64,000 bases of DNA, from positions 566-64,565 of IMG/VR virus record IMGVR_UViG_3300010348_000547; one strand, written 5' to 3'. Source of the DNA: a virus. Its lineage: Duplodnaviria; Heunggongvirae; Uroviricota; Caudoviricetes. Every line of letters starts with the position of its first letter. Positions within the stretch are counted from its first letter, which is position 1. Positions 26,255 to 61,300 of the stretch are shown in pieces. The notes below the pieces were generated by a model. The model had not been told where the DNA came from and ran no database searches. It was given only the letters and a program-made list of their open reading frames with translations. Made by a program: the position numbers and the translations under genes.

Positions 26255-26288
26255 GGCCTCAGAGAAATCTGGGGCCTTTTGCTTTTTA
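26255..26288 (+). terminator. Rho-independent terminator closing the fibre cluster
   Basis: GGCCTCAGA-GAAA-TCTGGGGCC (one G-U pair, GNRA loop) followed by TTTTGCTTTTT. Confidence 0.88.
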
Positions 26289-26295
26289 CATTTTA

Positions 26296-26336
26296 AAAGT
26301 TTATTTTTAAACTTTAAAAAAAATCCGTATATTAAA
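26296..26336 (+). promoter_or_regulatory. Inverted-repeat operator plus TATATTAAA box upstream of the tail operon
   Basis: AAAGTTTA-tttt-TAAACTTT (26296-26315) and TATATTAAA (26328-26336). Confidence 0.5.
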
Positions 26337-26353
26337 GTAGGGAAACAATTATC

Positions 26354-26938: not shown

Positions 26939-26939
26939 C

Positions 26940-27614: not shown

Positions 27615-27619
27615 TAATC

Positions 27620-39791: not shown

Positions 39792-42700
39792 ATGGCAACA
39801 TATATTCCAGGCATAATAGACTACATTCCTCAAGCACAGCCGTTTCAACCGGACTATAATTTCTTGGGGAATATGCTTCAAACGAAGCAATCTCAGTATG
39901 ATCAAAACTACAAGCAATTAAGCCAGGCCTATGGTACCTTGCTTAATTCTGACATGCTGCGTGAAGACAACATTCAAAAAAGAAATGAGTTCTTCAAAAT
40001 GATTGATGATGACATTAAGCGCATCTCAGGAATGGATTTGTCTTTGCAACAGAATGTAGATTCTGCTAATAAAGTGTTTGACTCTTTCTTTCAAAACAAA
40101 GACTTAGTAAAGGATATGACCTTTACTAAAGAGTATCAAAAACAAATGCAGATTGGAGAGTCTTTCCGTAATTGTATTGACCAGGAAAAATGTGGTGGTA
40201 AGTATTGGGATACCGGTATGCAAGCCTTACATTACAGAGCTGATGAGTTCAAGAATGCTAGTAAGCAAGAGTCAATGACTATGCAACCTGGACGTTTTGT
40301 ACCTCAGATTAATGTACAAGAAAAGACTATTAACTATCTGAAAGACTTACTTGGAAAAGGTGGTGATGGTGGATTCGGAGTTGAGAGTATCTCTTTCTCT
40401 CCTGATGGTCGTTATCAAGTAAAGACAAAGAATGGTGCTAACCTATCTATTCCTTTACAACAGTTGATTCAAGCTCAATATAGTAAAGACCAAAACATTA
40501 TTGATATGTACAACACCCAGGCTTATGTAAACCGTAAAGGTTTTATAGCTGGGAATCTTGCTGCATTCGGTGGAGACGCTGATGCTGCTGAAGATGCATA
40601 CTTCAGACAATTAGATGTTGAGTTTCAAAAAGCTCAATCTAACTTAATAAGTGCTCAGGAGCAATCGAATGCTATCCGTGCTCGTAACAATGTCTTAGCA
40701 AACCAGATTAAGAAAAACGGTTCAACCGGTGACGACCACTTAGCTAAAGATTATATAGCATCTGCTGTAGACTTAGCCGCTTCTAAAGGTGTTTTAAAAG
40801 ATGCTGAGGAAACTCACAATATTGCAAAGTCTGTATTTGAAGCTGGTGAGAATCGTGCAATGCGTCGTAATCGTGCTGACCAATTATTTGGAAGAAGCTT
40901 GATGAATAAAGAACTTTCAGAAGCTGCTGTTCGTGCAGCTGCTATGACTGGTTCAGTAAGCATGACAGCTGATCCTTATGCCATGAAACATTATGAGTTC
41001 TCTCTTGACATGGCTAAGATGAAAACACAATATGACCTTATGGATAGAAACTCCATGAGAAATCACTTATACGACCTTAATAAGCAAAAGGCTTTACTTG
41101 AATACAAGAAACGTGGTTCAGCAGTTGAGCCAGATAATCAAGGTGTATATGTGGATGGTGTTAAAGGAACTACTGCAATTGCAGGTGATAATGAAGCACA
41201 AGATGCACGTAGTCAAGTTATACAAGAAGCATCTTCGGCACAAGCTAGTGCTAATGCATTCACCAATGGTTATGCAAACACGTTATTAGGTATTCTTCAA
41301 GATTCTAAAGCGGGGGCAGATGATAAAAATGTAGCGGTTAGTACACTACAAACTATGTTTGGTAAAGCTGAAAAGAACCCTGATGGTACTTACAAACGTG
41401 CTGGATTTGATGCTGAAAAAGGAGTGTTTGTTGACCAACAAGGAAATACACATGGAACAGCCCAAGGTATTTCAGGAAGTTATGATTGGAAATCAGCTTA
41501 TGACCGGGCTCAACAACAAGCTAAATTAAATAGAAGTATTCCAACTCATGCAAGTTATCTTGATGGAGAAGGAAAGAAACTTCAAGAACATTACGATACT
41601 AACATGAAAGTGTTAGCAGCAACTAGCAAAGCATGGTATGATAATAACAAGAATGTAAAGAGCTGGGGTAACACTAAGCTTTCTGGTGATGAACTAGAGA
41701 ACTGGAACAACCTATTCACATCTGACAATAATCTTAAATCACCTGAGCAGTTTGCTAAAGACTATTTAAGAGCTCATCCTTCAGACGATGAAAGCGATGC
41801 AATGGATGCTTATGAAGAAATGAACGATAAGTACAACAAGTTCTACAATGAAGGTAACGTGGCTGGAAAAGACAACGACGGAAAACCTGTTCCTGTAGTA
41901 CGTTCTACACATGGTTCATCAAACTTCAACTTCTTAGGTGGAGGTACTTCTGCAGGTGGTGGAGTTATCTATAACTTCAACTCAGAAAGTCCGGCTTCAT
42001 TGGGAACTCGTGGTTTAATCACGATGTACCAAGATGCACAAAAGCCAGGTTCTATATGGACTATTGGTAATCATGGTGACAGAGCTGAAGGTGAAGCGGC
42101 AATGACGGCTACTGGAACAAATGCTAAATTAGCTATGGACCAGTTAATGCATGACTTACGTACGGGCAATCTTACTAAGGCTGAAAAAGAAAACATTCAA
42201 GGACAAATCATGTACATGGATGTAGCTTTAGGTGATAAAAATATGGCCGGTGCTACAATCAAAATGCCAACAAGTTGGTTACAACGTTATCAGAAGAGTG
42301 ATAAAAATGTGAACTGGGCGGATGATATGAGTCTTGCTTCTGAAGGTGTATCTATGTATGTAGATAAACGTACTGCTAAGAATGCATTTACGCAATCGTT
42401 CAAAGAACAACCATATGACTATATCCTTAATCATGATGACGTTAAAATCAGCATTCCAAATGCAGGAGACCTTACTATCAATAAGAGAAACTCTGACGGT
42501 AGTATCACTGTAATAGGTAATGTTGGTGGTTATGACGCTAATGGTAAATGGCAATTAGTTCCTGCTACTAAAACATATTATGGTGATGTAGGTGGTCAAA
42601 ACTTATACAACAATTTAAACGTGTATATGAATGAGATTGCCGCTTCTAATAAAGCTTACAAGGAAAGCAAAGTAACAAATCGTATTCACGAGCCTGGAGA

Positions 42701-42806
42701 ACTTCCACAAATACAAAATCAATTACAGGCTTCTGCAAATGGAAACTCAGCAGATCCTACAGAAATGTATCTACAAAGCGTTCAACAAGCATTATTCGGT
42801 AAATAA
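39792..42806 (+). CDS. Large virion cargo or ejection protein
   Basis: 1004 aa, helical; first gene of the tightly coupled block ending in the RNAP-module giants. Confidence 0.6.
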   Translation: MATYIPGIIDYIPQAQPFQPDYNFLGNMLQTKQSQYDQNYKQLSQAYGTLLNSDMLREDNIQKRNEFFKMIDDDIKRISGMDLSLQQNVDSANKVFDSFFQNKDLVKDMTFTKEYQKQMQIGESFRNCIDQEKCGGKYWDTGMQALHYRADEFKNASKQESMTMQPGRFVPQINVQEKTINYLKDLLGKGGDGGFGVESISFSPDGRYQVKTKNGANLSIPLQQLIQAQYSKDQNIIDMYNTQAYVNRKGFIAGNLAAFGGDADAAEDAYFRQLDVEFQKAQSNLISAQEQSNAIRARNNVLANQIKKNGSTGDDHLAKDYIASAVDLAASKGVLKDAEETHNIAKSVFEAGENRAMRRNRADQLFGRSLMNKELSEAAVRAAAMTGSVSMTADPYAMKHYEFSLDMAKMKTQYDLMDRNSMRNHLYDLNKQKALLEYKKRGSAVEPDNQGVYVDGVKGTTAIAGDNEAQDARSQVIQEASSAQASANAFTNGYANTLLGILQDSKAGADDKNVAVSTLQTMFGKAEKNPDGTYKRAGFDAEKGVFVDQQGNTHGTAQGISGSYDWKSAYDRAQQQAKLNRSIPTHASYLDGEGKKLQEHYDTNMKVLAATSKAWYDNNKNVKSWGNTKLSGDELENWNNLFTSDNNLKSPEQFAKDYLRAHPSDDESDAMDAYEEMNDKYNKFYNEGNVAGKDNDGKPVPVVRSTHGSSNFNFLGGGTSAGGGVIYNFNSESPASLGTRGLITMYQDAQKPGSIWTIGNHGDRAEGEAAMTATGTNAKLAMDQLMHDLRTGNLTKAEKENIQGQIMYMDVALGDKNMAGATIKMPTSWLQRYQKSDKNVNWADDMSLASEGVSMYVDKRTAKNAFTQSFKEQPYDYILNHDDVKISIPNAGDLTINKRNSDGSITVIGNVGGYDANGKWQLVPATKTYYGDVGGQNLYNNLNVYMNEIAASNKAYKESKVTNRIHEPGELPQIQNQLQASANGNSADPTEMYLQSVQQALFGK

Positions 42807-45800: not shown

Positions 45801-48013
45801 AAATATTTGACTTAGGTTTATTTGTATTACCAGAAGAAGTAGAACGTCTGAAGAACTTCAGTGTAACCGATTTTTACAATGTTGCAGATAAAAGTTTATT
45901 ATCAACGTCTGACCCTAAATACAGGCAGGCTGTTGATATCATTGATAAATACGCACAGGAAGCTGGACAGATGGTTAAGGATAAAGCTACTCCAGAAGCG
46001 GGTAGTGATGAAGAGTCTCGCTCTATGGAGAACTATAACGCAACGGCAAGACCCAAGTTCAGACCAACTGCTGGCGGTGTTGGGAAAGATGACAGGAGAA
46101 CTTATAGAGACCTTGCCAAGCAGTTCGGATTTGATCCATCAAGTGTTAGGTCAACCGTAGCTGTAGAGAAAGTTTTAAAGTCTATTGTGGACAGTGAGTT
46201 TGCTACTAACCGAGAAAAAGCTTTAGCAAGACGATTGCTTGCAGTAGTAAAACCTGGTCAGGTAATTACTTTTGCAGCTGACTATTCAGGCCCTGGTGTT
46301 TATAAGTCAGATACTAAAGAAACAATAGTTGATGCTCGTTACTCTTCAGAAGATTATCAGAAGGGACAAAACGGTCATCCGGTTGAACATGTTATCTTGC
46401 ACGAGTTACTTCATGCATTAACTGTAGAAGGGCTTGAGACTGACCCAGAGTTCAAAGAAGCTATTACTAAGATGTTATCCACAGCGATGGCGTATCAGCT
46501 TTCTCCTGAAGGAAAAGCTAAGTTTGGTGATAAGCCTTTATATGGATTAAAGAATGAGGCGGAGTTTATTTCAGAGGCATTGACAAACGATACTTTCCAA
46601 AGAATGCTTAGTCGTATTCCATACACAAGTACCGGTAAGCCAAGTAACTTATGGAATGAGTTCCTAAAATCAGTGGCTAAATATATCCAAAGAATTTTTG
46701 GTGTGCAAAAAGGTTCATCATTATTGGATGAGGCTATGCACATTATTACCGCTAAGATTGACAATCGCCCAACAGCTAAAGCTCAAGAAAAAGTTCAAGG
46801 TGTTTTAAAGGCTGGAGATAAGGTTTCTCAATCTACTCCAATTGGTCAAATAAAAACTCTTGCTTTAACTTCTAAGCCGCACGCTGAATTAATTGCTAAA
46901 CTAGCTGACGGATACCGTAAGTGGACTAAGGATAAAGAGGCTGTTAAGGATTTAAGTGATGACGAAATCACAAACAGGGAGGACTTCCAAGACTTCATGT
47001 TAAAATCCGGCAGTACTCTTCACCCTATCAATGAGTTTAACGCTCAGATGGAAAAAGAGAACAAAGGTATTCCAGGAGGAAAAGCAACCACAACAACCAC
47101 TAAAGGAAAACGTGAGGTAATCAGCAATGACGAATGGCAAGATTTCGTAAACACGGGTACCGTATCAGACTTAACTTTAAAGTTAATTGTGGATAAATAT
47201 CGTGCTGCTGGTTCAAAAGCACTTAGCGAACGTGAACAAGCAATCTTCCAAGCAAAAACGCCTGAGATAGAAAGTTTACTAAAGAAGATTCAGGACGAAG
47301 AAATCGCAGCCAAGGAAAAAGCTAAGATTGATGCCAACAAAGCTAAAGCTAAACCAGTTGAAGAAGTAAAAGAGGGTCAGGAAGTTATTACTCCAAAAGC
47401 TCTTATGGAACAATATACAGAAATCACTAATGCTGAAGAGATAAAAGCATGGGAAAATAATGCTGCAGCTTTCTTACAGATGGGTGACCTAGATGCTTTC
47501 GAGAAAGAATTCGGAGAGCCCTTTACTCCAGAATTTGCTATGCGCCAATTAACAGATAAAGTAAAAGCTCTTGCTGAGAATTTAGATTTCAACACTCTGC
47601 AGATGGGTACCGTAGTTATACTTTCAGATAAAAAATCTGTGGCTGTTGTGTCGAAGAATGATGGTAAAACTGTATCTTTAATGCCATACAAAATGTTTAA
47701 GGAAAACTTTAAACTTAGTCCTGAAGGGGAATGGGTTAAAAGGTCTGAAAGCATTAATGAAGAGGGAGTTATCCCAGTGCCGAAAGAGGAAGTTAAAAAT
47801 TACATATGGATTAAAAACAGTGAATTTAAAGAAATGGTAGAACAAACACCTGAACCGACTCCAGAGGAAAAACAAGAATCAGCAGAAACTCTTGTAGCTG
47901 AAAAAGAAAGATCAGCTGACGAAACCAATGAGATTCTGAACAACGCTGAAACCGTTGATAACGCTGAAGCTAAAAATGCTGCGGCTAGTTTATTTAGTAC
48001 TTGTAAAAGATAA
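42809..48013 (+). CDS. Giant virion cargo protein with zincin-like metalloprotease domain
   Basis: 1734 aa. HELLH at 46400-46414 with downstream NEAEFISEA, and a Gly/Ala hydrophobic segment near the N-terminus. Confidence 0.75.
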   Translation: MADETNPNSSGLVSAPIIPALPEIQAAGDATALLKTPPPVITPVIPSGFPQAVEVNTQLQGDYHTGPAPGAKPVNQKNGTLDFVKASVQALGNDEAVKDQFKYGRAYSYGAGYKNQNFERYYKHGKFDELGFSPYRDNDALYNEKGSWWDDFNRMRGEWDNLAFSGFKSIWGSEETANEEMEKGMAIGSSTRGGFGSSVINFGLNSAYTVGIIGELALEDAALAALEFGTMGAATPEVAAVGGARNAMAFGRLVKAWEGTSAFLKTLKNAEQAKDVFNAAKAGEKLTDFAKWANPFQRSMEWTTHLAKGTNGVSNLGNMAKVSKTFGNFYRDLRELNVAHSEARLEGEGAAVEYQNKLVDEFYNEHGRMPDNNEAKEIYDRAQSVKSSVTLANDITIYATNKLVFEDLFEGVRPGSKIAESFLEGSGRFLKRTAAKDFKAGMTAGVEGATAALTASEKSAGKKVADFLLTSAYVPWSRKYFVGNLGEALQENAQETIKIAAHDYYDKVHSDPSQLGFYGTLASIGKGTSAQFSGQGLETFLSGYMMGSLIQAGGKGMKSIASPAGRGASALANMATKGKYGQEWGAESESAKAKKQAEETDNDILNAANFVLDNGLIYGGHRADVAAGIKAAAEAKRAKAKEGDEKTARDMQNEMQLNHFDILARTGNMGLITEHVDDMMKLSDEDLLNAYNQPTKSDGSNMTAEDVRNKLQGLKNNAQGYQRAYDKAHRSRPNPHNPWMFDKEKHPEAYKDELDKYMAHEQALSDMIFANESYSNIADRMAKMGNELSGNGALSNFFNTSSAGSPLADVIGTDISLLVDPVLLSKHMQSLGDQIKVFSKGTAEERKKAKEAIDSMRHLKEWRVFAHTYAAELKNLGKPGATPEEIAATQKNADFLVAQMYKTFDKYVRHVAKTKNGFVFTEQMNKGFSLLKDFMALNADKQRMVHAINKFSDPNMFDRYKEIQKDIQKSQREQKLERLNKALEKFKAMALQNQMLNEIFDLGLFVLPEEVERLKNFSVTDFYNVADKSLLSTSDPKYRQAVDIIDKYAQEAGQMVKDKATPEAGSDEESRSMENYNATARPKFRPTAGGVGKDDRRTYRDLAKQFGFDPSSVRSTVAVEKVLKSIVDSEFATNREKALARRLLAVVKPGQVITFAADYSGPGVYKSDTKETIVDARYSSEDYQKGQNGHPVEHVILHELLHALTVEGLETDPEFKEAITKMLSTAMAYQLSPEGKAKFGDKPLYGLKNEAEFISEALTNDTFQRMLSRIPYTSTGKPSNLWNEFLKSVAKYIQRIFGVQKGSSLLDEAMHIITAKIDNRPTAKAQEKVQGVLKAGDKVSQSTPIGQIKTLALTSKPHAELIAKLADGYRKWTKDKEAVKDLSDDEITNREDFQDFMLKSGSTLHPINEFNAQMEKENKGIPGGKATTTTTKGKREVISNDEWQDFVNTGTVSDLTLKLIVDKYRAAGSKALSEREQAIFQAKTPEIESLLKKIQDEEIAAKEKAKIDANKAKAKPVEEVKEGQEVITPKALMEQYTEITNAEEIKAWENNAAAFLQMGDLDAFEKEFGEPFTPEFAMRQLTDKVKALAENLDFNTLQMGTVVILSDKKSVAVVSKNDGKTVSLMPYKMFKENFKLSPEGEWVKRSESINEEGVIPVPKEEVKNYIWIKNSEFKEMVEQTPEPTPEEKQESAETLVAEKERSADETNEILNNAETVDNAEAKNAAASLFSTCKR

Positions 48014-48021
48014 TTAATACC

Positions 48022-51000
48022 ATGAGCTGTTTATTAAACCAGGAAATGCGAGATGGGCTATTCGTAATGGTAGCCTCTGATTTATTTACAAAAGCAAAAG
48101 GCGACGAGCCTCTTGACCTTGATGCGTATATCAGGGAGGTGTATAACTTTGCTAAAATTTCTTCTCAAGGGAATGAAGCTTTAGCATTAGATGCCGCAAT
48201 GCTGGTACCTGGTTTTGTTGACCAGACATTAGCTAATAGACCAAAGTTAGAAGAGCACTTTGAAAAATTCAATGAAGACATCCGTATGGAAGTTCTTGCA
48301 AAGAAAAAAGCTTTCCGTAGTATCGATAAAGTAAGAGAAGTTCTTGGTTTAACTGAATCACCAGCTGAGATTATTGATGCGGTGGAACAGGATATTAAAA
48401 CCGAGGTTGCTCCTGAACCCGTAATTGAGTCTGAAGAAAAACAGCAAGAAAAAGCTGAACCATGGAAAACGTTACCATTTGGTGCATTCTATACCTATGG
48501 ACCAGAGATAACTGAAACAGGAGAGGTTGTAAAAGAGAATGTACTAAACATTGCAGCTATTAAAACCATTAGAGAACTGATGGAAAAGCAAGGTGTCTCT
48601 GATAGCTCACAAGTAAATGTACCTGGTGTAGGTCCTGTATTTTTAAAGATTATGCCAGCAGGTGAAGCTAATAAACTTGCAGGTCGTCCAAGTTATACCC
48701 ATGCTGATAAAGGTATGGTAGCTGTTCTTACCAGCTCATGGGGTGAACCTGTATCATTTGATGGTACCGGTAAAGCTATTACAAATGGTAAAGGTGCTTC
48801 ATGGTTTAAACTATACAGCCCTGTTCCTTTCAAAGTAAATGCAGGAGGAACTATGATTCTTGATTTGAATCAGAAAGCTTTCATGGATCATGTGATGGCC
48901 AGTCCTGAGTATAGTACAATGAAAGACTGGCAAAAGAAAAAGAATGCAGCTTCTTTCTATAACACAGTTATGACCAAATACAATGCTTTAGTACGTCAGT
49001 ACAGAGATGCGGGTATGACTGAAGTTGAAGCTGAAATGGAGGCACTTGATAATTTAACAAGAGACTTTGAAGCATTCGAATGGATGCGTCAATATGTAGA
49101 AGAAAAAGGTAATTCAGTTCAAGCTGTTATTACAGGTTCTTCAAAAGGGTTTGTTATCAACAATCAATATAACCCGACTCCGCTTAAACAAATCTTTGGT
49201 GAGAATACGTTTTCTCCAATCTCTGTTAAGAAAGAAGAGTTAGGTATGAACTTACCAATGGGTGGTGCATATTTCTATGCTCCTGGAATTAGTGAGCCTA
49301 TCAACATTGATAAACCTTCTGTGAAAGATATGCCTGAACTTATGAATCAGCTTATCTCTTTATTCACTCAACCATTAACAGAGAATGGTAAGCCTGTTGA
49401 TATTCTAAGGAGGAATGCACTTATTCAACAGTTCTTATTAGCTAAGTATAGCAATATCCGTTTTGTACCAAACACTAAAGACGGAGGCTTTACACATGAG
49501 AATGGTCAATTCCGTGTGGATATTAATGGTGTACGTTACAGCTTTGACTATACTGAAAGCGGAACAGCTAACAGAAATAAATTAGCTGAGGCTTTACAAA
49601 AAGCATTTACCACTCCAAGCAAAGGTGCTAAGGTTCCTCTTAAACGAGAGAACTTAGCTAAGGAAGGTGTAGTACCCGTTAAAACATTAGAGGGTCAAGT
49701 TAACACCAATAATGTTTTAGAAGACGACAAAGGAGACTTTTACAAAATCAATTTCCCACACGTAGACGTGGTAGGAAACTTGATCAATGGTGTATTGGAA
49801 ATGCCAACTATCAACAACGGTGTGTTGACAATTACTCCAATGCCTTATAATAATTTCATAAGAGATAACTATGCAACTATCGCAAAGGTTGATGCTAACA
49901 ATAAAGTTGTAGCATTTAATCCTGTAATGACTTTTGCTCCTACGCTAGAGGAGTTTACTAAGTTCATACCTGGTGCAAAAGTTCAAGAGCAAGTTGAAAA
50001 ATCACAAGAACCTGTAGAGAAAAAAGAACCAACCAATACAGCGGCTACACAATCTAATGCTGATTTGGATGAATTGGCTGCAGGCTTTACGATGGATAAA
50101 AGACTTCCTCAAAAAGAATTGAACTCTGCTGTTTTAGCACATCAAATAAAACAAGCTGAGATTTGGTACAACAATAGTCCATTGAAGAAGCACTTTCCTT
50201 TTGAAACTGTGTTCAGAGCAGTGAACCAAGGTATTGGTCCAGTTGCTCAATGGTCAATTCATGGTATCCGTTTATTCCATTATTACTCTGAGGATGGTAA
50301 GTTTGATGCATCAAAAAGTGGTGACTTCACTGATTTATATCATGAAGCATGGCACGGTTTTACACAAACTTTCCTTACGGCTGACCAACGTAAAACATTA
50401 TATGCTGAAGCACGCAATCGTTCTGGCTCATTTGTAGACTACAATGGAAATACTGTCTCTTTTAAAAGTGCTGATGTATGGCAACTTGAAGAGTTCTTAG
50501 CAGAAGAATTTAGAGAGTTCATGATATCCGGTGGTAAAAAGATGATAAAAGGTTCTCCAGGAACACGTTCTATATTTAAACAAATACTTGATTTCTTAAA
50601 AGCCCTATTTACAATACACCAAGTACCTGCAGCAGATTTAATTCAAAACCCGCTGAGTTATGGACCTATATTTGAGATGTATGAAAACCTACGTGTTGGT
50701 GATTTGTCTAAGTATAACTTTGACGTTAACAACCGTGACAAATCAATAGGTGTATTAAACAGCTTACAAGCTCGTGATAAAAACAGCAGTAGCCAGGTAA
50801 TTGACTTGCAGAATGCCAACATGTTGGTGAACTCAATGGACTCTATCATCTCTAAGTTTGCAACGTTTGTTTCAAAATCAAAAGGTGACAGGTCTTATGT
50901 AACTCAATTAATGAGTACACCTGAGAATAGAAAGTCTGTTTACAGAACCGTTCTTCAAGAACTTATCAAAACTAAAGACAAACTCATTAAAGAACGTGAT

Positions 51001-54000
51001 GAGTTATCTGGTGAAGATCCAAAAACAGCTTACAAGCGAAATATACTTCAGCAAAGCATTAACACTTTAGAATGGGCTACTGGTCCAAACTTTGGTGATA
51101 TTGAGAACCTTGCTAACAACAAAGACAATAAAGGTCTTATTGCTTACCATGTACTTAAGTCTAAGTACTTATCAGAACAGGATAAGGAATCATTGTTTGA
51201 TGACAGCGAAATTGATGAGGTAAAACAAAACGAGGAAGCGCGTGGTCAAGGTTTTGACCGCTCCGGAAATGAAACCAGTCAATACGACTTGTCTTCTCCT
51301 GAAGTAAAATATCTGTTACGCAGTATTCACCGCTTTGATAAAAACGGTTTACCGGTAAAAAACGTTATAGGTATTCATGAGTTAGCAGATACCCATGTGG
51401 TATGGAATAAGATTGCTCGTACCTTAAATGGTATCATGAGCAGACCGGATATGTGGAAAGCTTTAGATAAAGCCGCTCATGAGAGAAATGCTGCAGGTGA
51501 AGTGACTCGTATAATTGACCCAACTATATCTGAGTTATTAGATAAACTTGGACCAGTGGATACACAATCAGAAGCTGATACTGCATTATGGCAAAAGTTC
51601 TGGGCTACCTTCAACATGGTTAGTATTCCGTTAATTCAAATGACGGTTGAAGAAACAACTCGTGAAGACAATGGTGTAGTTTCTTCAAGCTATAAAATGA
51701 CTATTGGTCAAGCTAATTCAAGTTCTCGTAGAACAGGTAACCTATGGAGAAATGCTTTCCGTACAATGAATACGGATTACATTCTTCGTGATATGAATGA
51801 GGCAACACCTGAGGGAAAACAAAACCCTACATTCAACATGAATTACTTAGATGTTGATGCCGTGATTGCTGATTTCACAGATACTAAAGGTAAGCTTAAA
51901 GATGCTCCTGGTTTCTTGAGAGCTATCGGTGTATTACTAAGTGATAAACCGGTTATAAATACTGCAGTTAATAGCAATGTTGGAAATCCTGCTGTAATAT
52001 TAACAAGACTGAAAACACTTTCTAAGAATAACATAAAACGTGTATATTCATTAGATGATGTGTTTAAAGAGTATGAAGATTTAGGATTAGCTAGTGACAA
52101 CGCTAACTTAACAGCTTTAGCTGATCTGGAGAACAAGCATAGTGACCATACATCTAATTATGCTCAAACCAATGCTGAGGGAAATACTCAATATGAATTG
52201 AGCTTACACAACAGTATGAGTATCATGGTGTCAACGATTAATAGTGCAGAGTCTTACCAAGACTTAATGGCTATTCCTCACATGAGATATCTTGATATAA
52301 ATATCAATCCGTTTGCGGCATCGTCTCTGTGGTTAAATTCCATCTTTGAAATGAAAGATGCTTTAGGTAGACCTCTTGCAACTAATGACCCGGCATTCGG
52401 AAGAAAGCGTCGTGATGCTAGCGGCAACTTAGTTAAGTTGAATATGTCCAACTTAAGTGGTGTTCAAATGACAAGCGAGAGTGGTACTGATGGTATTGCT
52501 TCTGCAAGTGCTGATGAGTTCACTAAGATGATTATGGATTTCCATATGACTCTTAATGGTAAGCCAGAATTGATGCGTCATGCGGATAAAGGAACTTCAT
52601 TCTCTTTATGGTTACAAAACATTGTAGGAGGTGCTAAGACTGGCGGATATGTTGATACCATTAGCTTCTTCAAAACAGAACAAGGCGATGTAATTGGATA
52701 CAATAAAGCTGCAGACATGATGATGAATTATCTAGATGCAGAAATGAAGCGTATCCAAAAACTTAATGAGATTAAAGAGCTGACTAAAAAAGGTGATGTT
52801 GTTTATGATGAGCATTACTTGAAAGAGGGTCGTAAGTTTGTAATCTTCGAAGACATCTTAACTCCAGCTACTCAAGCAGCTTTACTTAAGGATAAGAGCT
52901 TAGTAAATGTTGTTCCAGAAAACTTAGAAAAAGTAAGAGCTGAAATTATTGAGTATTTGGACAATCAGTTCAACAATGTGAAAGAGGTTTTCCAAAAGAA
53001 CCACTTCATTGATAAAACATTATCGGCCCGTATTAAAACAGAAGCTGCTAAAGCAGGATATGTTACTGGTCCGGTTGCAAACAGTTTTGCTAATAAAGCT
53101 TTAACTCTTACAGAAGATGCCATGGTGCGTTCTTTTGTAGTGAACAGTTGGATACACAACATTGAGTCAATGAACATTGTTTATGGTGACATTGCTCAAT
53201 ATAACATGAAGAAAGAAGAGTTCCATAAGCGTAACGCGGGTGCCGGTTCAACTGGTAACCTATTTGCAGTGGATAACGCTATGGTTAACTATGTGAATAA
53301 ACAAGGTAGAAAATATGCTGCTTCAAAAGGGTTTACTGAGAAGCAACTTGCTACCGATGGCTCATTCCAAACAGCTATCTTAAAAGACAATGAGATTCCT
53401 TCTGCATATTTCAAAGAGATACGCCAGGCAATTGCTGAACGTATCACTGCAAAGAACAAAGGTTTGTCTGCAAAAGAACTTGAAGAGAAGATTGACAAAG
53501 CTGTAAAAGCTTATACTGAAATGAATGAGGGTGATGCACAAGGTTGGATTACATTTGACTTTTATCGTTCAGCTTCTATTATGGAAGGTAAGTGGACAGG
53601 TAAGCAAGAGAAAATGTATCAAGCTATCTGTGCTGGAGAAAGTATCTCAATGGATGATGCCATGGAGTTCTTCCCAACTAAGAAGTACCAATACTGGGGT
53701 CCAGTTGAGAATCGTAAAAACGAAAACGGGCAATTTGTGAAAGACCAATCAGGTTTCTTACCTACGATGGCGTTTCACAAGTTCTCATTATTCCCGCTTA
53801 TTCCAAATGTCATCAAGGGTACGAACCTTGAAAAGCTTCATGATAAATTAATGAAGCAGGGTATTGATTATGCTGTATTCAAATCAGGTTCAAAAATCTC
53901 TACCCTAACAAAGATTGATGAAGAGGGAAACAAAATACAAGATGTGTTATACTCTAAAGGACGTGAGGTTGATGAAACTTCTACTCTTACTCCTAACACT

Positions 54001-57000
54001 GTTTACTTACAATTCTTAAAGAACCAGTTGGAGATAGCTCCTCACTTTAAGGAGAAAGTAACATTCCCTACTCAGATGCGTAAGCTTATTGAAAACGGTC
54101 TGATGGAAGGCGGAGTTCCTACTGATTTCAGAAGTGACTTACCATTACCAGAAAGACAAGCTGAGTGGGAGAAACTTACTAAAGACGAGAAGTTTGAAAA
54201 GTCTCCATACTACAACTTGATCAAGCGTTATGAAGCAAACATTGCCAAGCTAACCAAAATCAAGAAAGAGGCTCTTATCAAAGAAGCTAATATCCAGTAC
54301 AAAACCGTTGATGGAAAACGTGTAGTACAGATAGACAAAAAGCTGATTGAGTTCATCCAAGGTGAGCTTTCTCGTCAAGAATTAGGCGAGCATGAAATTG
54401 CGTTTCTTAAAACTAAGAAAGGTGGTACCGGATTAGCGCATGACCTTTCAATCTCTCTTTCTTCTGAAAAGCTTGAGAAGATTTTAAATGCTATCGTAGT
54501 AAAGCGCCTTGTAAAACAAAAGTTTAAAGGTGAAGGTTTAATCCAGGTATCTGGTGCAGGTTGGGAAACTAACTTACGCGGGGAGCTTTCTGAAGAAGAA
54601 AGAATCAAGTATGGTACAAATGAATTACCATTCTATACTCGTGGAGAAGATGGAAAGACTAAAGCTATGAAAGTTAAAATTGCAATGCAAGGAGACTTCC
54701 GTAAGCTTTATGAATTACTACACAATGATGGTCAAAAGATTGATTCACTTGAGCGCTTAAATGAAATGCTTAAGAGTGAAGAGTGGCTTAATAAAGGACA
54801 GCATAGAGACATGGTGAGTATCACTGGTCCTCGTATCCCAACCCAGGAGAATAACTCTATGGAGTTTGCTGAGGTTTATGAGTTCTTACCTGAACAAGCG
54901 GGTAACATCGTTGTTCTTCCTTCTGAGATAGTTGCTAAGTCGGGTGGTGACTTTGACATCGATAAGATTACATTCATGTTCCCTACCATTAAAGCTAAGA
55001 CTAACCTTAAGGATATTGACTTCAAGATGTTTGGAGACTTCCATAACAAGACGGAAGATGAGCTTAAAGCAATCCTTGAGAAAAAGAAAAAGGACAGAAC
55101 CGAGGAAGAGCAAAACATCTTTGACCATATCTACAACTACTATCCTAAAGAAGTAACCCTTCCTATGGATACTACAACTGAAGAAGGTCTTGAGAATCGT
55201 ATCTTGAAAAACATGAGAGATATGCTAGCTCTTAAAGACAACTATGCCAGTTTAGTACGTCCAAATGATACTGACTTAATTAAACCTTTGGCTGATGATC
55301 TGGCTGATAAAGTAATGGCGTATAAACCGAAAGCACGTTTCCGTGGAGAGTCTTCGAAAGTAATTGCAGGTACGCGTGTATTTGAAATTCAATACAACTT
55401 ATACAAGCATGGGTCAAACAATATTGGTAAACAAACCTTAGGTTTAGGTGCCGTGGATAACACATACAATACGGTATTCAACCGTATCGGTATGCGTATG
55501 AACAAAGGTTATACTACAACAGGTGGTGTCTACAAAGACTTAAATATATTGTTGCCTCACAACCGTGTTAACGATGAGTCAGGTAACAAAGTTATCTCAT
55601 TAGCTAACTTGTATGATGCAACTGGACAAACAAGCATTTCTTCAGTAGTTGCACAGCTTATTAATGGTTGGGTGGATATTGCTAAGGATGCTTGGATATT
55701 CAACATCCAAGGTAACAAAGAGGTATCACCAACGTTGTTATTTATGGTACAGGCGGGTGTTCCAGTAGACCAAGCAGTTTACATGGTATCACATCCACTA
55801 ATCCGTAAATACGTTGAGGAACAAAAGTTAGCAAAGAGTATGTTTGCTAAGACTCTGGGTAAAGGTGATAAGAATCCAATGTTCTTCAGAAACGCTGCAC
55901 GTCGTGTGATGTTTGAAGAATTGTTTGATAAAGACACAACTAAAAAGCTTGGAGGAAAAGCCAAAGAAAGAGATGAGAAGTTTGACCAGTTGACTCGTGA
56001 TTACTATCAATCACCTGAAGTTAAAGCATTCTTCAATCCAAAAGAAGTTGCCAATAACTTGTATGGCCGAATTGAAAACAAATCCGGAATGTGGGACAAT
56101 GTAGATAGAGCAATCTTCTTACACTTCCTTGAACTGGAAGAGATGTCAAAGGTTATGACCAAAGTTAAAATGAACACTAACTTTGATACTAGCCGTTCTG
56201 CAACGTTGTTTGATGCACAAAGAAAGTCTCAGTTGTTAGCTGACTTAAGAGAAGAACGTATGTTCCCTTCAGCAATGATTGATGCTATCTTAACTGAATC
56301 ACCTATCGGTAGTTTCAATGTTCAAGATTTCCAAGTTGAATTATGGCAAGACCTATTCAAGTTGAGAAACAATCCTGTGTTGAATACATTCATCATGGAT
56401 AAAATGAAAGACCTTAACGAGTTCAATGATGCTAAGGACGCTACATTCGGTGATGCTGAAAAAATGGTTAATGAATTACGCAATGACTTAACTAGCTTTA
56501 TTTTCCAAAACTCAATACGCAAGTTCAATATCAACGATAAGGTTTACCGTGGTATGGACATCAAGTCTGAGGGTAAAGAAGTGAAGTCTTTAACTAGTTT
56601 ACGTCATGCTGTATTTGTTAAGGATGGTGTCATCTATATGGACAAGGCTCAACTAGAAAAAGACTATCAAGCTTTAGCTCTTAAGAAATACAAATACAAT
56701 GTTACATTAGCAGATGGTACCGTTATATCTGTAGCTCCTGTTAAAGCTACTGATTTTGAAACAGCTGATACTTACTACTCGTTTGTGTTTGAACGTGAAA
56801 TATTACGTGACCAATGGAAAGGTAAGTGGGACGTTATGAAAGAAAGAGCTGATGTACAAGCTAAACTTGAAATGTACAATGCAAGCTTAGCAAAAGAAGC
56901 TGATGAAACTGATGCTCATTTTGAAGCTCGTGTAAATCAAATAGTATTTGAAGAAATGCTACGTGATATGGCTATGGACAATACATTCAATGCGGCTAAG

Positions 57001-58335
57001 ATGTTTAGAAGCAGAGAATCAATGGCCGATCAACTTACGCAGATACAAATCATGTATCCAGAACTTGCAGATAAGTACAGCTTAGTAGGTGCTTTATCAG
57101 CTAACGTAATGGAAAGAGGTAGCAGCCGTACAGCAAACATAATGCTGAATGACTCTATGATTGATGACCCTGAAAAGATAAACATATTCCACCAGAACTT
57201 GTTGGCCTTATCTGACCCACATAAGATTGAGCTTAATACAGAATCCGCTGTTGAAAGACAACGTGTAACAGATTTCTTCAATCGCTTTACTATATATGCT
57301 TTCTTACAATCTGGTATGAACACTAAAGGGATGTATTCATTAATACGCTTGGTGCCTCAGGAGAAGTTCACTGACCTAATGACTTTATACATTCCGGAAT
57401 TCTCTAGTAAGATTAATAATGTCACGCTTGAACGTTATTGGAAAAAGTTCATCCAGGTAAATTCTGACCGTAGATCTCGTAGCCGTATGAGAGATTATAC
57501 TATTAACAACTATGACCTGAATGCAGACTACGAACGTAGCGGTTACGGGCAAGCTTCAGTTAAAGATGTTAAAGACATGATTAAGGCGGCATTAAAAGAA
57601 AAGGCTACTACGACAGCTGCACCTGAAGTTAAGTTTACTGAAGATGCACAAGGTAATATGATATTCGATGCTCACGGTATCGGTCGTGTTGGAGCTACTA
57701 TCGCTTCCAATAAAAATCCGGATGTGATATTTGCCATCAATGGTGTTGCTCAGTCTCCTGATGGTAAAATGCTAGATGGTGGTGCAGATAAAAACGAAGC
57801 TGCTCTTTATGGTATCAAGCAAGGAAACGTTGTAGGATTACCTACAAGAAATACATTCCGTGCAGGTAAAGATGGTCAGATGAATAAAGCTGATATTTTA
57901 CCAGATGGTCAACAACCGGTTGAAGGAGCAAACGGAATTGCCTCTACAGGAAAGACTCAAACTGGAAACCAGCCGGCACCTATCAATTCTACAGTAATCA
58001 ATCCTGCTTTAAAACAGCAAATTGACTCTGCTATATCTACGCTTAAAGACTATCAAGCCCAAGGTAAAAAGATTGCTTTTCCTAAAGCAGGTTTCGGTCA
58101 ATACATGATTGGAGCAGATGATGTTACGGGTGAACTAAAAGATGATAAAATTGTGCCAATAGCTCCCGCAGCTTTCGTATATTTGTCTCAACAGCTTTGG
58201 GATAATTTTAAGTTTGTGAACCCTAATTTTGACAAGGCGCTTGGTTTTACTAAGCAAGCCAATGTACTGCAAGCTAATGCAGAGGTTACAGACTTAGATG
58301 TGTTAGACGCCCTTAGTTTTTGTTTTAAAGCGTAA
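48022..58335 (+). CDS. crAss-type virion-packaged single-chain DNA-directed RNA polymerase with an N-terminal zincin domain
   Basis: 3437 aa. The catalytic GGDFDIDK (DFDID at 54949-54963) is preceded by ITGPRIPTQ, matching the DFDID motif of Cellulophaga phage phi14:2 gp66. HEAWH at 50341-50355 with EEFLAEEF. Confidence 0.9.
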   Translation: MSCLLNQEMRDGLFVMVASDLFTKAKGDEPLDLDAYIREVYNFAKISSQGNEALALDAAMLVPGFVDQTLANRPKLEEHFEKFNEDIRMEVLAKKKAFRSIDKVREVLGLTESPAEIIDAVEQDIKTEVAPEPVIESEEKQQEKAEPWKTLPFGAFYTYGPEITETGEVVKENVLNIAAIKTIRELMEKQGVSDSSQVNVPGVGPVFLKIMPAGEANKLAGRPSYTHADKGMVAVLTSSWGEPVSFDGTGKAITNGKGASWFKLYSPVPFKVNAGGTMILDLNQKAFMDHVMASPEYSTMKDWQKKKNAASFYNTVMTKYNALVRQYRDAGMTEVEAEMEALDNLTRDFEAFEWMRQYVEEKGNSVQAVITGSSKGFVINNQYNPTPLKQIFGENTFSPISVKKEELGMNLPMGGAYFYAPGISEPINIDKPSVKDMPELMNQLISLFTQPLTENGKPVDILRRNALIQQFLLAKYSNIRFVPNTKDGGFTHENGQFRVDINGVRYSFDYTESGTANRNKLAEALQKAFTTPSKGAKVPLKRENLAKEGVVPVKTLEGQVNTNNVLEDDKGDFYKINFPHVDVVGNLINGVLEMPTINNGVLTITPMPYNNFIRDNYATIAKVDANNKVVAFNPVMTFAPTLEEFTKFIPGAKVQEQVEKSQEPVEKKEPTNTAATQSNADLDELAAGFTMDKRLPQKELNSAVLAHQIKQAEIWYNNSPLKKHFPFETVFRAVNQGIGPVAQWSIHGIRLFHYYSEDGKFDASKSGDFTDLYHEAWHGFTQTFLTADQRKTLYAEARNRSGSFVDYNGNTVSFKSADVWQLEEFLAEEFREFMISGGKKMIKGSPGTRSIFKQILDFLKALFTIHQVPAADLIQNPLSYGPIFEMYENLRVGDLSKYNFDVNNRDKSIGVLNSLQARDKNSSSQVIDLQNANMLVNSMDSIISKFATFVSKSKGDRSYVTQLMSTPENRKSVYRTVLQELIKTKDKLIKERDELSGEDPKTAYKRNILQQSINTLEWATGPNFGDIENLANNKDNKGLIAYHVLKSKYLSEQDKESLFDDSEIDEVKQNEEARGQGFDRSGNETSQYDLSSPEVKYLLRSIHRFDKNGLPVKNVIGIHELADTHVVWNKIARTLNGIMSRPDMWKALDKAAHERNAAGEVTRIIDPTISELLDKLGPVDTQSEADTALWQKFWATFNMVSIPLIQMTVEETTREDNGVVSSSYKMTIGQANSSSRRTGNLWRNAFRTMNTDYILRDMNEATPEGKQNPTFNMNYLDVDAVIADFTDTKGKLKDAPGFLRAIGVLLSDKPVINTAVNSNVGNPAVILTRLKTLSKNNIKRVYSLDDVFKEYEDLGLASDNANLTALADLENKHSDHTSNYAQTNAEGNTQYELSLHNSMSIMVSTINSAESYQDLMAIPHMRYLDININPFAASSLWLNSIFEMKDALGRPLATNDPAFGRKRRDASGNLVKLNMSNLSGVQMTSESGTDGIASASADEFTKMIMDFHMTLNGKPELMRHADKGTSFSLWLQNIVGGAKTGGYVDTISFFKTEQGDVIGYNKAADMMMNYLDAEMKRIQKLNEIKELTKKGDVVYDEHYLKEGRKFVIFEDILTPATQAALLKDKSLVNVVPENLEKVRAEIIEYLDNQFNNVKEVFQKNHFIDKTLSARIKTEAAKAGYVTGPVANSFANKALTLTEDAMVRSFVVNSWIHNIESMNIVYGDIAQYNMKKEEFHKRNAGAGSTGNLFAVDNAMVNYVNKQGRKYAASKGFTEKQLATDGSFQTAILKDNEIPSAYFKEIRQAIAERITAKNKGLSAKELEEKIDKAVKAYTEMNEGDAQGWITFDFYRSASIMEGKWTGKQEKMYQAICAGESISMDDAMEFFPTKKYQYWGPVENRKNENGQFVKDQSGFLPTMAFHKFSLFPLIPNVIKGTNLEKLHDKLMKQGIDYAVFKSGSKISTLTKIDEEGNKIQDVLYSKGREVDETSTLTPNTVYLQFLKNQLEIAPHFKEKVTFPTQMRKLIENGLMEGGVPTDFRSDLPLPERQAEWEKLTKDEKFEKSPYYNLIKRYEANIAKLTKIKKEALIKEANIQYKTVDGKRVVQIDKKLIEFIQGELSRQELGEHEIAFLKTKKGGTGLAHDLSISLSSEKLEKILNAIVVKRLVKQKFKGEGLIQVSGAGWETNLRGELSEEERIKYGTNELPFYTRGEDGKTKAMKVKIAMQGDFRKLYELLHNDGQKIDSLERLNEMLKSEEWLNKGQHRDMVSITGPRIPTQENNSMEFAEVYEFLPEQAGNIVVLPSEIVAKSGGDFDIDKITFMFPTIKAKTNLKDIDFKMFGDFHNKTEDELKAILEKKKKDRTEEEQNIFDHIYNYYPKEVTLPMDTTTEEGLENRILKNMRDMLALKDNYASLVRPNDTDLIKPLADDLADKVMAYKPKARFRGESSKVIAGTRVFEIQYNLYKHGSNNIGKQTLGLGAVDNTYNTVFNRIGMRMNKGYTTTGGVYKDLNILLPHNRVNDESGNKVISLANLYDATGQTSISSVVAQLINGWVDIAKDAWIFNIQGNKEVSPTLLFMVQAGVPVDQAVYMVSHPLIRKYVEEQKLAKSMFAKTLGKGDKNPMFFRNAARRVMFEELFDKDTTKKLGGKAKERDEKFDQLTRDYYQSPEVKAFFNPKEVANNLYGRIENKSGMWDNVDRAIFLHFLELEEMSKVMTKVKMNTNFDTSRSATLFDAQRKSQLLADLREERMFPSAMIDAILTESPIGSFNVQDFQVELWQDLFKLRNNPVLNTFIMDKMKDLNEFNDAKDATFGDAEKMVNELRNDLTSFIFQNSIRKFNINDKVYRGMDIKSEGKEVKSLTSLRHAVFVKDGVIYMDKAQLEKDYQALALKKYKYNVTLADGTVISVAPVKATDFETADTYYSFVFEREILRDQWKGKWDVMKERADVQAKLEMYNASLAKEADETDAHFEARVNQIVFEEMLRDMAMDNTFNAAKMFRSRESMADQLTQIQIMYPELADKYSLVGALSANVMERGSSRTANIMLNDSMIDDPEKINIFHQNLLALSDPHKIELNTESAVERQRVTDFFNRFTIYAFLQSGMNTKGMYSLIRLVPQEKFTDLMTLYIPEFSSKINNVTLERYWKKFIQVNSDRRSRSRMRDYTINNYDLNADYERSGYGQASVKDVKDMIKAALKEKATTTAAPEVKFTEDAQGNMIFDAHGIGRVGATIASNKNPDVIFAINGVAQSPDGKMLDGGADKNEAALYGIKQGNVVGLPTRNTFRAGKDGQMNKADILPDGQQPVEGANGIASTGKTQTGNQPAPINSTVINPALKQQIDSAISTLKDYQAQGKKIAFPKAGFGQYMIGADDVTGELKDDKIVPIAPAAFVYLSQQLWDNFKFVNPNFDKALGFTKQANVLQANAEVTDLDVLDALSFCFKA

Positions 58336-58346
58336 TTAGTATAAAG

Positions 58347-61300
58347 ATGAAAATATGTCCAAATCTTAGCGACCCTCAAATCAAAGCTCAATGGGATGCC
58401 TTAGAACAGCATCCCGAGTTAGGTAAACTTGAGGCAATGAGAGAATTTATGGAGGCGGAAATCGATGGTCGCCCTGTACTTACTCCTGAACTTGTTATAG
58501 AAAAGCTATCTAAAAGGTCAACACCTAAGTCAGCTGAAGCAATTCAAGCTGAGATGGATAGACAGGAAAAGATTATCCTGAGCAAATCAAATGACACAAC
58601 CTTGTTCACTGACCCTAACTCCCTGTACGGGAATGCGGCTTTGACTAGCGATGTTAACTTGATTGAGTTGGACGTTACCTCAAATAGTAACACTCGTGGT
58701 ATAGAACTAGCTACCAAACTTTCTGAGCAATTAGGAGTTGGGTTTCAGGTTGTTTCTCCTGAAGAAGCAGCCCGTATTACTGCAGAGTCGGAGAACCCCT
58801 ACAATGCAACTAAAGGTTCTGCATTCTTCTATGGGGATACTGTTTACTTTGTAGGTAGTAAGCTTAATACACAATTAGCATTCCATGAGTTTTCTCATCC
58901 GCTTATTCGTAGTATTCAACAGCAAAACCCTCCATTATTTCAAAAACTAGTTAACAAGGCTATTGCCTCCGCTCCAAAAATTTTGGAAGAGGTACAAGCT
59001 GAGTATGCGGATTTACTTAAAGCATTTGAGCAGGAGTCTGACCCAAGACGTGCAGCTGAACTAGCTGCTAAGTATCAAAATATTGTGGGTGAAGAGATAT
59101 TAGTACGCTCTTTAACGGTAGCCGCTGTGATCAAATCAAACAACGTACAACTGATGGGTCCATTCCAGAAGTTCATTGATGAGCTCCTGTATGCGATTAA
59201 GCAAATCTTAAGAGGGACATTCGGTAAAAAGGTTGACGTAGCCAAATTAGATGGTAACACAACTTTGGATGAACTAGCTGAGATGCTTGTAAAAGGTAAC
59301 CAGTTTGAGATTGATACTAATGCTGTTTCTGATAAGGATGTTGTCGCTTACAGTGATGACTTCAGTGCATACCTGGATGACTTAAATGCCGCAACAGAAA
59401 CGGCCGGTGCACAACATTTAACTGACCTATCTCGTAAGATGTACGAAGGAGCTGCTCAACAAATTGAAATGTTGATGAAGAACCGTAACTACCGTGAGAT
59501 GCTTGAGTTATTTGTGGATGACTATAACCGTGGTGACTTACAGGAGATGCGTTCTAATGTAGCTAAATACGCTAAACAACTTCAGGCTAAAATGGAAGAG
59601 CTTGCTGAAGATGTAGACCGTACTCGTAATGAAGGAACTGCTTTAGTTACCAGTATTCTTCGTCTGGAAGTGATGATGAAGAAGATGGAAGCTCATCTTA
59701 ATAAACTACAGGCTGAGGCTCAAAAGACTCCTACTACTCAGGAGGAAGAAGAGAATCACCGAGATATGGTTCACAAAGCATATTACTATTCCCATGTATT
59801 AAACTACTGGCAAAAATATATTGCTGAGGCAAAAGACATGATGCAAAAAGCCGGTGCAGATCCTCGTTCTCCTATGACTACATTACTGAACAGTATTCAA
59901 GGAACAATGGAGAACTCCGCTCGTCACATAAATGCTATGAATACCACAGGTATCACTGATGTATTATGGGACCAATGGAAAGACATGTCTGAGCAAGCAG
60001 AAAAATTATTCAATGAGCAAATAGCTACACTGAAGAAACAAGGCGCTAACAAGTCAATCATTGATAAAGCTTTCATTGATTTCCACGGTATGCCTGAGGA
60101 AGGTGTTACTCGCTTGAGAGAATTAAATGCTAAGCTGGACAGTGGTCAAAGACTGAATGGTGCTGAAATGGGTGAGCATGAAAATCTTAAAAAGCTTTCC
60201 TTAAACGGATTCAACGTTACTAAGACTAAGATTGAAGCGGCCTTACGCGGGGAGGGTAAAGATGCTAACTGGGCTAACTCTTACCTGGAAGGATACCTTT
60301 ACAATACTGACCCTGTAATTGGAGGCTTTGCGAAGTACTTCAAGAATAACATGATTGAAATGGAGTCTCGTGTTCAGGCACGTTACAACGATATCGTTTC
60401 TGAATTAAAACCTTTACTAGATTCTGCAGGTATTACCTTTACAAATATTGGTGACCTTGGTAAGAAGATTGGTTTTGTAGACACCATTGGTTACTTTGAC
60501 CCGGAACAAAAGAAGTTTGTTACCAAAGAGGTATGGACATTATTGAATGCCAACAAGAACTACCGTGCTACAATTGACCAATTCAACTATGATATAAAAA
60601 CTCTTCAAGATAACTACAACCGTAGCGGGATGGAAGAGGATAAAGATGCATTACGTAAAAAGATTGCAGAAAAGAACAAGCACATGAAGCAATGGTTCCA
60701 CCAAAAATATGTGGACGAATACTATGAAGCTTCAGAATTACTTGAGGGTGAACTTGGCGAACAGGCTGCCTTTGAACGTCAGAAGATTCTGGATGAAATC
60801 GGATTGCTTCAATCTAAAGCAATGGATGAGTTTGATGTATTAAAAAACACTGAGCAGTTAGGTTTACTGTGGAAAAAGTATAAGTTCTTGCATTCATCGT
60901 ATTATGCCGATGGAACAAAAAAGACTAACTCTTATGTGGATGATGCAGGTGTAGTACACACATCAAACAGCTTCATCGAGAAAGCTCCTGGACGTAATAA
61001 CATCAATAATGACTTAGCCATTGCAGAACGCTTGACTGAGTACAAAGAGAAAATGAAAAAGTTCTACGAGTTTAAACCTCGTGAGGGAGCTTTTGAGAAT
61101 GCCTTACTTAACTTTGAAAAAGAGATTGAGGCGAAGATCACCCAGTTGCTTGGTTCTAAACCTACTGACCCAACTGAGGCGTCTGAATGGGAAGACCAAT
61201 ACGAAGCAATGTTTGAAACGTACCGTAAGGAATGGATTAACTTGAATACTCGTGTTCAAATTAAACCAGAATTCTACGAACGTCGTGCTGAAATATTGGC

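Follow-up and report, generated by a model that had tools for sequence, protein, structure and literature searches.

Facing terminal cysteines suggest that the giant virion cargo proteins of Crassvirales may be joined head to tail

In the closest described relatives of the phage studied here, the crAss-like phages phi14:2 and crAss001, genes downstream of the tail genes encode a giant RNA polymerase with a DFDID motif and two giant partners (gp67-gp66-gp65 in phi14:2, structure 6VR4, and gp47-gp50-gp49 in crAss001). Packaging of this cargo trio in the virion is known in both phages from mass spectrometry (bioRxiv 10.1101/2020.03.07.982082; PMC10172136), gp65-67 of phi14:2 being virion proteins (bioRxiv 10.1101/2020.03.07.982082). 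The crAss001 cargo proteins gp45, gp46, gp47, gp49 and gp50 are thought to exit the particle partially unfolded, and their order of extrusion must depend on their packing and mutual interactions, the cargo being unresolved in the structure (PMC10172136). Podovirus-like phages thus face the problem of moving megadaltons of protein, in the right sequence, along a channel too narrow for the folded molecules. Here we analysed a stretch of 64,000 nucleotides (positions 566 to 64,565 of IMG/VR record IMGVR_UViG_3300010348_000547; hereafter the window), contained in a viral contig of 128,565 bp, which carries three consecutive giant genes, all on the plus strand, for proteins that we call A, B and C. 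The window is most likely the cargo block of an uncultured, divergent crAss-like phage from a lake. Its three giants are nearly free of cysteine apart from one residue at each of the chain ends that face one another, and the same arrangement recurs across the Crassvirales.

The window resembles the cargo blocks of phi14:2 and crAss001 in its giant DFDID polymerase, its two giant partners, its place downstream of tail genes and its terminal cysteines, a rule common to all three blocks. It differs from them in the length of the polymerase (3437 residues against 2180-2412), in an identity of only about 25% over the polymerase core, and in the zincin-like motif HExxH, which occurs in all three window giants and in one protein of the trio in phi14:2 and crAss001; the zincin-like domain would so appear to have been multiplied or moved in this lineage. 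Judged from its sequence, protein B is a very divergent crAss-type virion RNA polymerase, because it contains the motif GGDFDIDK, because a phmmer search of the Protein Data Bank (PDB) with its residues 1700-2900 returned 6vr4_A (phi14:2 gp66) as the sole match (E=6e-21), and because tblastn with B matched 86 crAss-like phage records. The three aspartates of DFDID are invariant in our alignment A1, which takes in phi14:2 gp66 and crAss001 gp50. Protein C matches crAss001 gp49 (blastp, E=5e-8). For protein A the match is confined to the zincin region of phi14:2 gp65 (E=4e-7); there is no direct match to phi14:2 gp67 or crAss001 gp47, with which it agrees in position and size. Scans of A, B and C against PHROGs and Pfam gave no family, megablast and N-terminal tblastn against a phage collection gave no match, a search for related loci with the polymerase N-terminus found nothing, and a Foldseek search of the PDB with a model of the protein C N-terminus returned nothing significant, a few zincin proteases standing among its weak rows. 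By homology with the described trios, A, B and C are most likely packed in the virion and injected.

Together the three proteins contain 5 cysteines in 7144 residues (0.07%), where about 140 would be expected at the 2.0% found in the other 27 listed open reading frames (ORFs) of the window (268 in 13189 residues), and four of the five sit at the two facing gene junctions, A/B and B/C. The initial annotation had read these positions correctly from the letters alone: the 1734-residue protein has a single cysteine, third from its C-terminus; the 3437-residue polymerase has three, namely Cys3, an internal one and one fourth from the end; and the next giant begins MKIC. In our numbering these are Cys1732 of A, Cys3, Cys1870 and Cys3434 of B, and Cys4 of C, which is the sole cysteine of C in the full contig, and the codon positions agree that a C-terminal cysteine meets an N-terminal one at both junctions. 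Its remark that a helix rich in acidic residues and alanine, followed by phenylalanine, precedes the C-terminal cysteines describes the window and many relatives, but not all of them. The internal Cys1870 is not conserved and was ruled out as a member of the pattern. The probability that at least 4 of 5 cysteines would fall by chance in the 16 junction-facing terminal positions among 7144 is about 1e-10, and it is about 2.5e-8 if windows of 10 residues at all six termini are allowed.

The survey of relatives comprised 80 loci, found by searching IMG/VR with a profile of the polymerase catalytic region (by identity of the catalytic core they group into 60 clusters at 90%, 51 at 70% and 29 at 50%), and the genomes of phi14:2, crAss001, crAss002, p-crAssphage, cr118_1, cr7_1, cr1_1, cr50_1, cr52_1, cr10_1 and cr108_1. 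The IMG/VR chains hold 319 cysteines in 498,733 residues (0.064%), 284 of them no more than 8-9 residues from a terminus, and cysteine was present on both sides at 140 of the 140 paired junctions found. The outer ends behave differently: none of 61 complete protein C ends has a cysteine at the C-terminus, and the N-terminus of A is cysteine-free in 12 of 12 complete cases (G000, G002, G003 and nine IMG/VR loci). Every separate B protein surveyed has its N-terminal cysteine at position 3-7, and every relative with a separate A protein has the position-equivalent C-terminal cysteine. No true exception to the terminal-pair rule was found among the surveyed loci and genomes. The initial annotation had staked its proposal on conservation of the terminal cysteines in orthologues, and this conservation proves very strong, reaching from lake phages through the marine phi14:2 to gut crassviruses.

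The same picture holds in single genomes. Close IMG/VR relatives at 45-49% identity show the window's pattern, and the A orthologues of G002 and G003 have a single cysteine, 3-4 residues from the C-terminus. The G002 trio consists of proteins of 1816 residues (Cys1813 only), 4641 residues (Cys3 and Cys4636 only) and 1938 residues (Cys4 only). In phi14:2 the only cysteine of gp67 (1797 residues) is its last residue, gp66 (2180 residues) has Cys3 and Cys2179 only, and gp65 (1421 residues) has Cys3 only; in crAss001, gp47 has Cys2339 only, gp50 has Cys5, Cys1334 and Cys2404, and gp49 has Cys5 only. The rule is also followed in the gut Suoliviridae, Steigviridae and Intestiviridae genomes that we checked. 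In alignments whose mean column identity is only 29-33%, the terminal cysteine is the sole invariant column of the protein C N-terminal domains (alignment A3), and it shares this status with no more than a distant tyrosine (Y90) in 17 polymerase C-terminal domains (alignment A2).

Since the cysteine codons of the window lie within about 25 nucleotides of stop and start codons, the pattern could in principle be functionless, arising by chance or from a nucleotide-level signal at gene boundaries, such as one for translational coupling, that happens to encode cysteine. The comparative data speak to this directly. The cysteine lies 0-8 residues from the C-terminal end and 3-7 from the N-terminal end, and both TGT and TGC occur; because both codons are used and the offsets vary, the terminal cysteine is, as far as the sequences tell, selected at the protein level and not as a DNA motif. 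The pair is moreover kept where the genes are 130-170 nucleotides apart (p-crAssphage and crAss002), where an ORF of 261 residues with six cysteines, which may be a mobile gene, has been inserted between A and the polymerase (L107, 640-1425), and where the gp47 gene lies on the opposite strand (crAss001). With the chance probability calculated above for the window alone, a functionless origin is extremely improbable, and in our judgement the comparative data already refute it. The crAss001 arrangement also modifies the claim of the initial annotation that the proteins are linked in gene order: the pairing of facing ends stands, but the order should be that of the proteins, the C-terminal cysteine of crAss001 gp47 being retained in spite of the inverted gene.

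Splits and fusions of the giant genes provide a further view of the rule. Where the polymerase has been split, cysteines have been gained on both new ends (G003/L004, L037, L053 and L096); in the G003/L004 split, into 3947 and 574 residues, ...KIKCLGGK-stop is followed by MNC..., and ...NNCFR-stop by MYTC.... Fusions show the converse. In L108, A and B are fused by homology into one protein of 4902 residues with one cysteine, its N-terminal part being homologous to A and the remainder to B. In cr118_1, with a gp47-like region to about residue 1784 and a gp66-like region from about residue 1871, the inferred A/B seam has no cysteine. One giant occupies the A+B position in cr108_1, cr1_1, cr50_1, cr52_1 and cr7_1, with no cysteine at its N-terminus and with the pair at the C junction kept, while in cr10_1 the only near-terminal cysteine of such a giant lies 10 residues from the end and is followed by a reading frame with ICPNL. 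The p-crAssphage gp44, a polymerase fused to the downstream subunit, keeps only its N-terminal cysteine, which faces Cys1956 of gp45. In both L086 and L091 a single giant follows immediately on the homologue of the 1004-residue protein of the window; the A-family profile gave no match, so they were rejected as A+B fusions by homology and are counted by synteny only. Polyprotein-like fusions in some relatives had been noted before (bioRxiv 10.1101/2020.03.07.982082).

Three breaks in ORFs lack cysteines, and none of them is a protein end. The break of L041 (14300-14340) is an A13 frameshift, and that of L047 (10001-10010) is a frameshift of 1 nucleotide across which the blastx alignment is continuous; these single frameshifts may be assembly errors or slippage sites. 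In cr108_1 (L114, MT774385.1), the catalytic motif is interrupted between ...AKAGSD and YDIDKMY... by some 290 nucleotides of intervening sequence (15117-15406), which is rich in stops and probably a self-splicing intron. The two polymerase halves of cr108_1 are annotated as separate hypothetical proteins.

Taken together, these data point to pairwise links between facing termini, because each junction has two cysteines, which makes 2, 4 or 6 in a chain, because the outer ends are free, and because both cysteines of a pair are gained and lost jointly. The same count, free ends and joint gain and loss exclude a single shared metal site, an intramolecular cyclisation and a DNA signal at gene boundaries: a Zn(Cys)4 or Fe-S site common to the three proteins is ruled out by chains with 2 and with 6 terminal cysteines, and cyclisation of the polymerase by A and C having one cysteine each. 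A read-through polyprotein was likewise rejected, the genes of A, B and C occupying three different reading frames, as were split inteins and protein trans-splicing, with no Pfam match and with 0-8 residues beyond the C-terminal cysteine and 2-6 before the N-terminal one, whereas trans-splicing would require Hint-domain halves of about 100 and 35 residues on the two sides of the junction and a cysteine as the first intein or +1 residue. Selection would appear to have stripped nearly all cysteines from the giants while keeping one per junction-facing terminus.

The thiols might nevertheless serve other partners than the neighbouring giant, such as a second copy of the same protein in homodimers, the portal, the capsid, smaller cargo proteins or a host protein met at entry, and we regard this as distinctly unlikely. 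The pairing of thiols cannot be read from sequence, and upstream cargo proteins of Intestiviridae have an orphan cysteine near the C-terminus (Cys856/857 in p-crAssphage gp47 and Cys550/557 in crAss002 gp30); but a partner of this kind would leave unexplained both the cysteine-free outer ends of A and C and the joint appearance of the pair at splits and its joint loss at fusions.

Alternatively, the cysteines could act inside the cell, either as cysteine-switch ligands that keep the zincin (HExxH) domains latent or as a redox switch on the polymerase. HExxH is found in every window giant, following Cys4 of protein C by 176 residues, and a zincin domain has been suggested to activate the polymerase of phi14:2 (bioRxiv 10.1101/2020.03.07.982082). 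A latency switch of the matrix metalloproteinase (MMP) type was rejected all the same: it fits the window, but phi14:2 gp66 and gp67 and crAss001 gp49 and gp50 have no HExxH and yet keep the terminal cysteine. Nor does an intracellular role predict the rule at splits and fusions or the restriction to at most 8 residues from the chain ends, and it appears very improbable.

A metal ion (Zn, Cu(I) or Fe) could also join two facing cysteines; such a link would hold in anoxic habitats and open on metal loss or competition in the cell. Gut phages that infect strict anaerobes observe the rule too, and the acidic residues common just before the C-terminal cysteine could add ligands. However, no conserved histidine or second cysteine lies near either terminus, the invariant columns being those given above for A2 and A3, a shared Zn(Cys)4 site is excluded as already stated, and a site with two ligands would be a weak tether for a chain pulled through a channel. 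We therefore consider the metal link unlikely.

As between these readings, the balance tips slightly towards reducible disulfides that bind the three giants end to end inside the virion, A to the RNA polymerase and the polymerase to C. What the sequences show is the cysteine pattern, how well it is conserved and what becomes of it at splits and fusions, while virion packaging and unfolded passage are known from the papers on relatives. We infer the disulfide bond, the stoichiometric packaging, the passage as a single thread and the release by reduction; the proposed course would be as follows. A, the polymerase and C would be translated as separate chains and then co-packaged. After release of the virion the facing thiols would oxidise, linking the C-terminus of A to the N-terminus of the polymerase and the C-terminus of the polymerase to the N-terminus of C, and the product would be a single thread, almost linear and some 7100 residues long, in which no overhang at a joint exceeds 8 residues. 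At infection the thread, unfolded, would go through the narrow channel of the tail with its parts always in the same order and at a ratio of 1:1:1, and in the cytoplasm the joints would be cut by host thiol reductants, after which the parts could refold. Placed a few residues at most from the chain ends, the cysteines suit a tether made to go through a narrow channel, the joined chain being near-linear, and disulfides are present in the tail of the crAss001 virion (PMC10172136). A search of this phage for a thioredoxin or glutaredoxin gene found none.

The facing ends were also modelled, a check that the initial annotation had put forward. In the models, Cys3434 stands at the end of the terminal helix of the polymerase C-terminal domain, behind a low-confidence linker, and Cys4 of protein C in an N-terminal coil before the helix of residues 10-21. 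When the C-terminal domain of the polymerase was paired with the N-terminal domain of C, the predicted complex had a score of 0.37, against 0.00 for the best of 3 controls; the runs share at least 26% of their contacts, and the pLDDT (predicted local distance difference test) of the partner is at least 61. In the calibration of the method, 58 of 80 solved complexes came up to the mark, as did 2 of 110 mismatched pairs; those that did so with a score of 0.60 or below were only 7 of the 80 solved complexes, but both of the passing mismatches. The prediction thus gives weak support to a contact of the facing ends.

Several points weigh against a disulfide-linked thread. In the papers found on relatives, no terminal disulfide is described. 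The gut habitat of many members is anoxic, which makes a spontaneous oxidation less certain, and the tail disulfides of crAss001 were seen in particles handled in air (PMC10172136). Two cysteines per junction suit a two-thiolate metal bridge as well as a disulfide, and the predicted complex is weak by the tool's own calibration. In the loosest cases the upstream cysteine lies 20 residues from the end (L097) or, in cr10_1, at the distance already given. Finally, the exclusion of cysteine is not absolute, as the giants of gut lineages tolerate 2-8 internal cysteines per protein. The environmental relatives (L031-L110) have 35 internal cysteines in the whole of their IMG/VR chains, a comparison for which the gut sample (L114-L122) is small; the larger number in gut giants may reflect a lower oxidative risk in an anoxic habitat.

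Known systems place the proposed disulfide thread in context. The injected giants of N4-like phages, including the virion RNA polymerase, are also almost without cysteine, and for these ejection proteins (Schitoviridae; DEV gp71-73 and N4 gp50-52) the near absence has been ascribed to passage of the envelope (PMC11445570). Unlike here, suppression is total there and a single chain of about 3400-3500 residues makes up the polymerase, whereas the Crassvirales cargo consists of several chains with a cysteine kept at each facing terminus. Cysteine suppression in ejected proteins is accordingly known already; for the terminal pairs we found no precedent in the literature, nor any mention of terminal cysteines or of a covalent chain in crAss cargo proteins, and the bioRxiv version of the phi14:2 paper mentions neither cysteine nor disulfide (10.1101/2020.03.07.982082). 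Disulfides between separately encoded virion proteins, formed outside the reducing cytoplasm, occur in the crAss001 tail barrel and gp57 dimer (PMC10172136) and in siphovirus tail-tube rings (PMC13576161). Those bonds rivet a rigid shell or tube at folded interfaces, while the cysteines described here, terminal in chains that have to exit the particle, point to a tether rather than a rivet. In AB toxins such as diphtheria toxin, one interchain disulfide holds two chains together while an unfolded chain passes through a membrane channel, and reduction in the cytosol frees them. The working principle would be the same, with no relation in sequence or fold; the toxin chains, however, arise by nicking of a single precursor and have their cysteines in a loop, whereas separate gene products, up to four in a row, would here be joined end to end.

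Extended to the order as a whole, the Crassvirales cargo could be regarded as a "pseudo-polyprotein", in which separate chains are joined by reducible terminal disulfides into threads of 5,000 to more than 8,000 residues that set the order and stoichiometry of injection and are cut by host reductants. Peptide bond and terminal disulfide would then be interchangeable in evolution, a fusion dropping the pair and a fission creating one; to this wider proposal we give a little less than an even chance. If true, a conserved minimal chemical tether would be a concrete and directly testable delivery mechanism, and it would apply to the most abundant order of human-gut phages and to its environmental relatives.

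The rule is also of use in annotation, as it tells true protein ends from frameshifts and introns in giant genes, shows which giants form a common chain even where their genes lie apart, and corrects start codons. In crAss002 (L121, MN917146.1; 12948-13050), the internal M33-S-C35 of gp33 gives the usual MSC and faces Cys2019 of gp32; from this sequence, the annotation probably starts gp33 too early, by 32 codons.

Features of the 64,000-nucleotide window, with positions counted from its first nucleotide
Feature	Position	Strand	Remarks
Protein A, 1734 residues	42809..48013	+	first link; by position corresponds to phi14:2 gp67 / crAss001 gp47
Cys1732 of A, TGT codon	48002..48004	+	only Cys of A, third from the C-terminus (LFSTCKR-stop)
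HELLH, zincin-like motif of A	46400..46414	+	
Protein B, 3437 residues, virion RNA polymerase (judged from sequence)	48022..58335	+	phmmer to 6vr4_A, tblastn to crAss-like RNA polymerases
Cys3 of B, TGT codon	48028..48030	+	N-terminus MSC
HEAWH, zincin-like motif of B	50341..50355	+	
Cys1870 of B	53629..53631	+	internal, outside the pattern; relatives have I, V or L at this column
DFDID catalytic motif of B, residues 2310-2314	54949..54963	+	context GGDFDIDK, residues 2308-2315
Cys3434 of B, TGT codon	58321..58323	+	fourth from the C-terminus (LSFCFKA-stop)
Protein C	58347..64000, runs past the window end	+	last link; related to crAss001 gp49; 1973 residues in the full contig
Cys4 of C, TGT codon	58356..58358	+	only Cys of C (MKIC); no Cys at the C-terminus of C
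HEFSH, zincin-like motif of C	58884..58898	+	176 residues after Cys4
N-terminal module of C	58347-58430		
Probable tail genes	17156-28696		3-7% Cys
812-residue protein	33864-36302		
1004-residue cargo protein	39792-42806		

Elsewhere in the window, the probable tail genes are rich in cysteine (for example, 62 in 1176 and 19 in 264 residues; 4-7% in the tail genes at 17-28 kb), and this run contrasts with the nearly cysteine-free cargo block from 36.3 kb onward. The 1004-residue cargo protein has two cysteines only, 128 and 134 (spacing CxxxxxC), and the pair is kept in G002 (128 and 134) and G003 (129 and 135). The 812-residue protein has a CxxC (146 and 149) together with Cys193 and Cys203, and its relatives keep one CxxC. 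The cysteine sites of these two proteins are possibly small metal or disulfide sites in otherwise cysteine-free cargo.

The orphan cysteines of the upstream Intestiviridae cargo proteins lie at 842-4330 in p-crAssphage (L120, BK010471.1), where gp48 has ...YRCGGHRR in addition to Cys856 of gp47, and at 2253-3926 in crAss002, where gp30 reads ...FRCGGKKKIA; in both phages the facing N-terminus is without cysteine. In the giant genes of cr7_1 (L116) every in-frame stop is a TAG (148 and 60 of them), as would be expected if this phage recodes TAG in its late genes, and the giant genes of cr52_1 (L119) contain 37 and 26 in-frame stops. Lastly, an N-terminal module, M-x(1-5)-C-P-N-x-x-x-x-E-W-x-x-L...G...A, begins the polymerase, protein C or the piece after a split, depending on the lineage. 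It is seen in L072, L097, L100, L032, L066, L070, L082, L086, L090, L092, L093 and L109 as well as in the window, and by its distribution among these sequences it seems to behave like a portable "acceptor" end.

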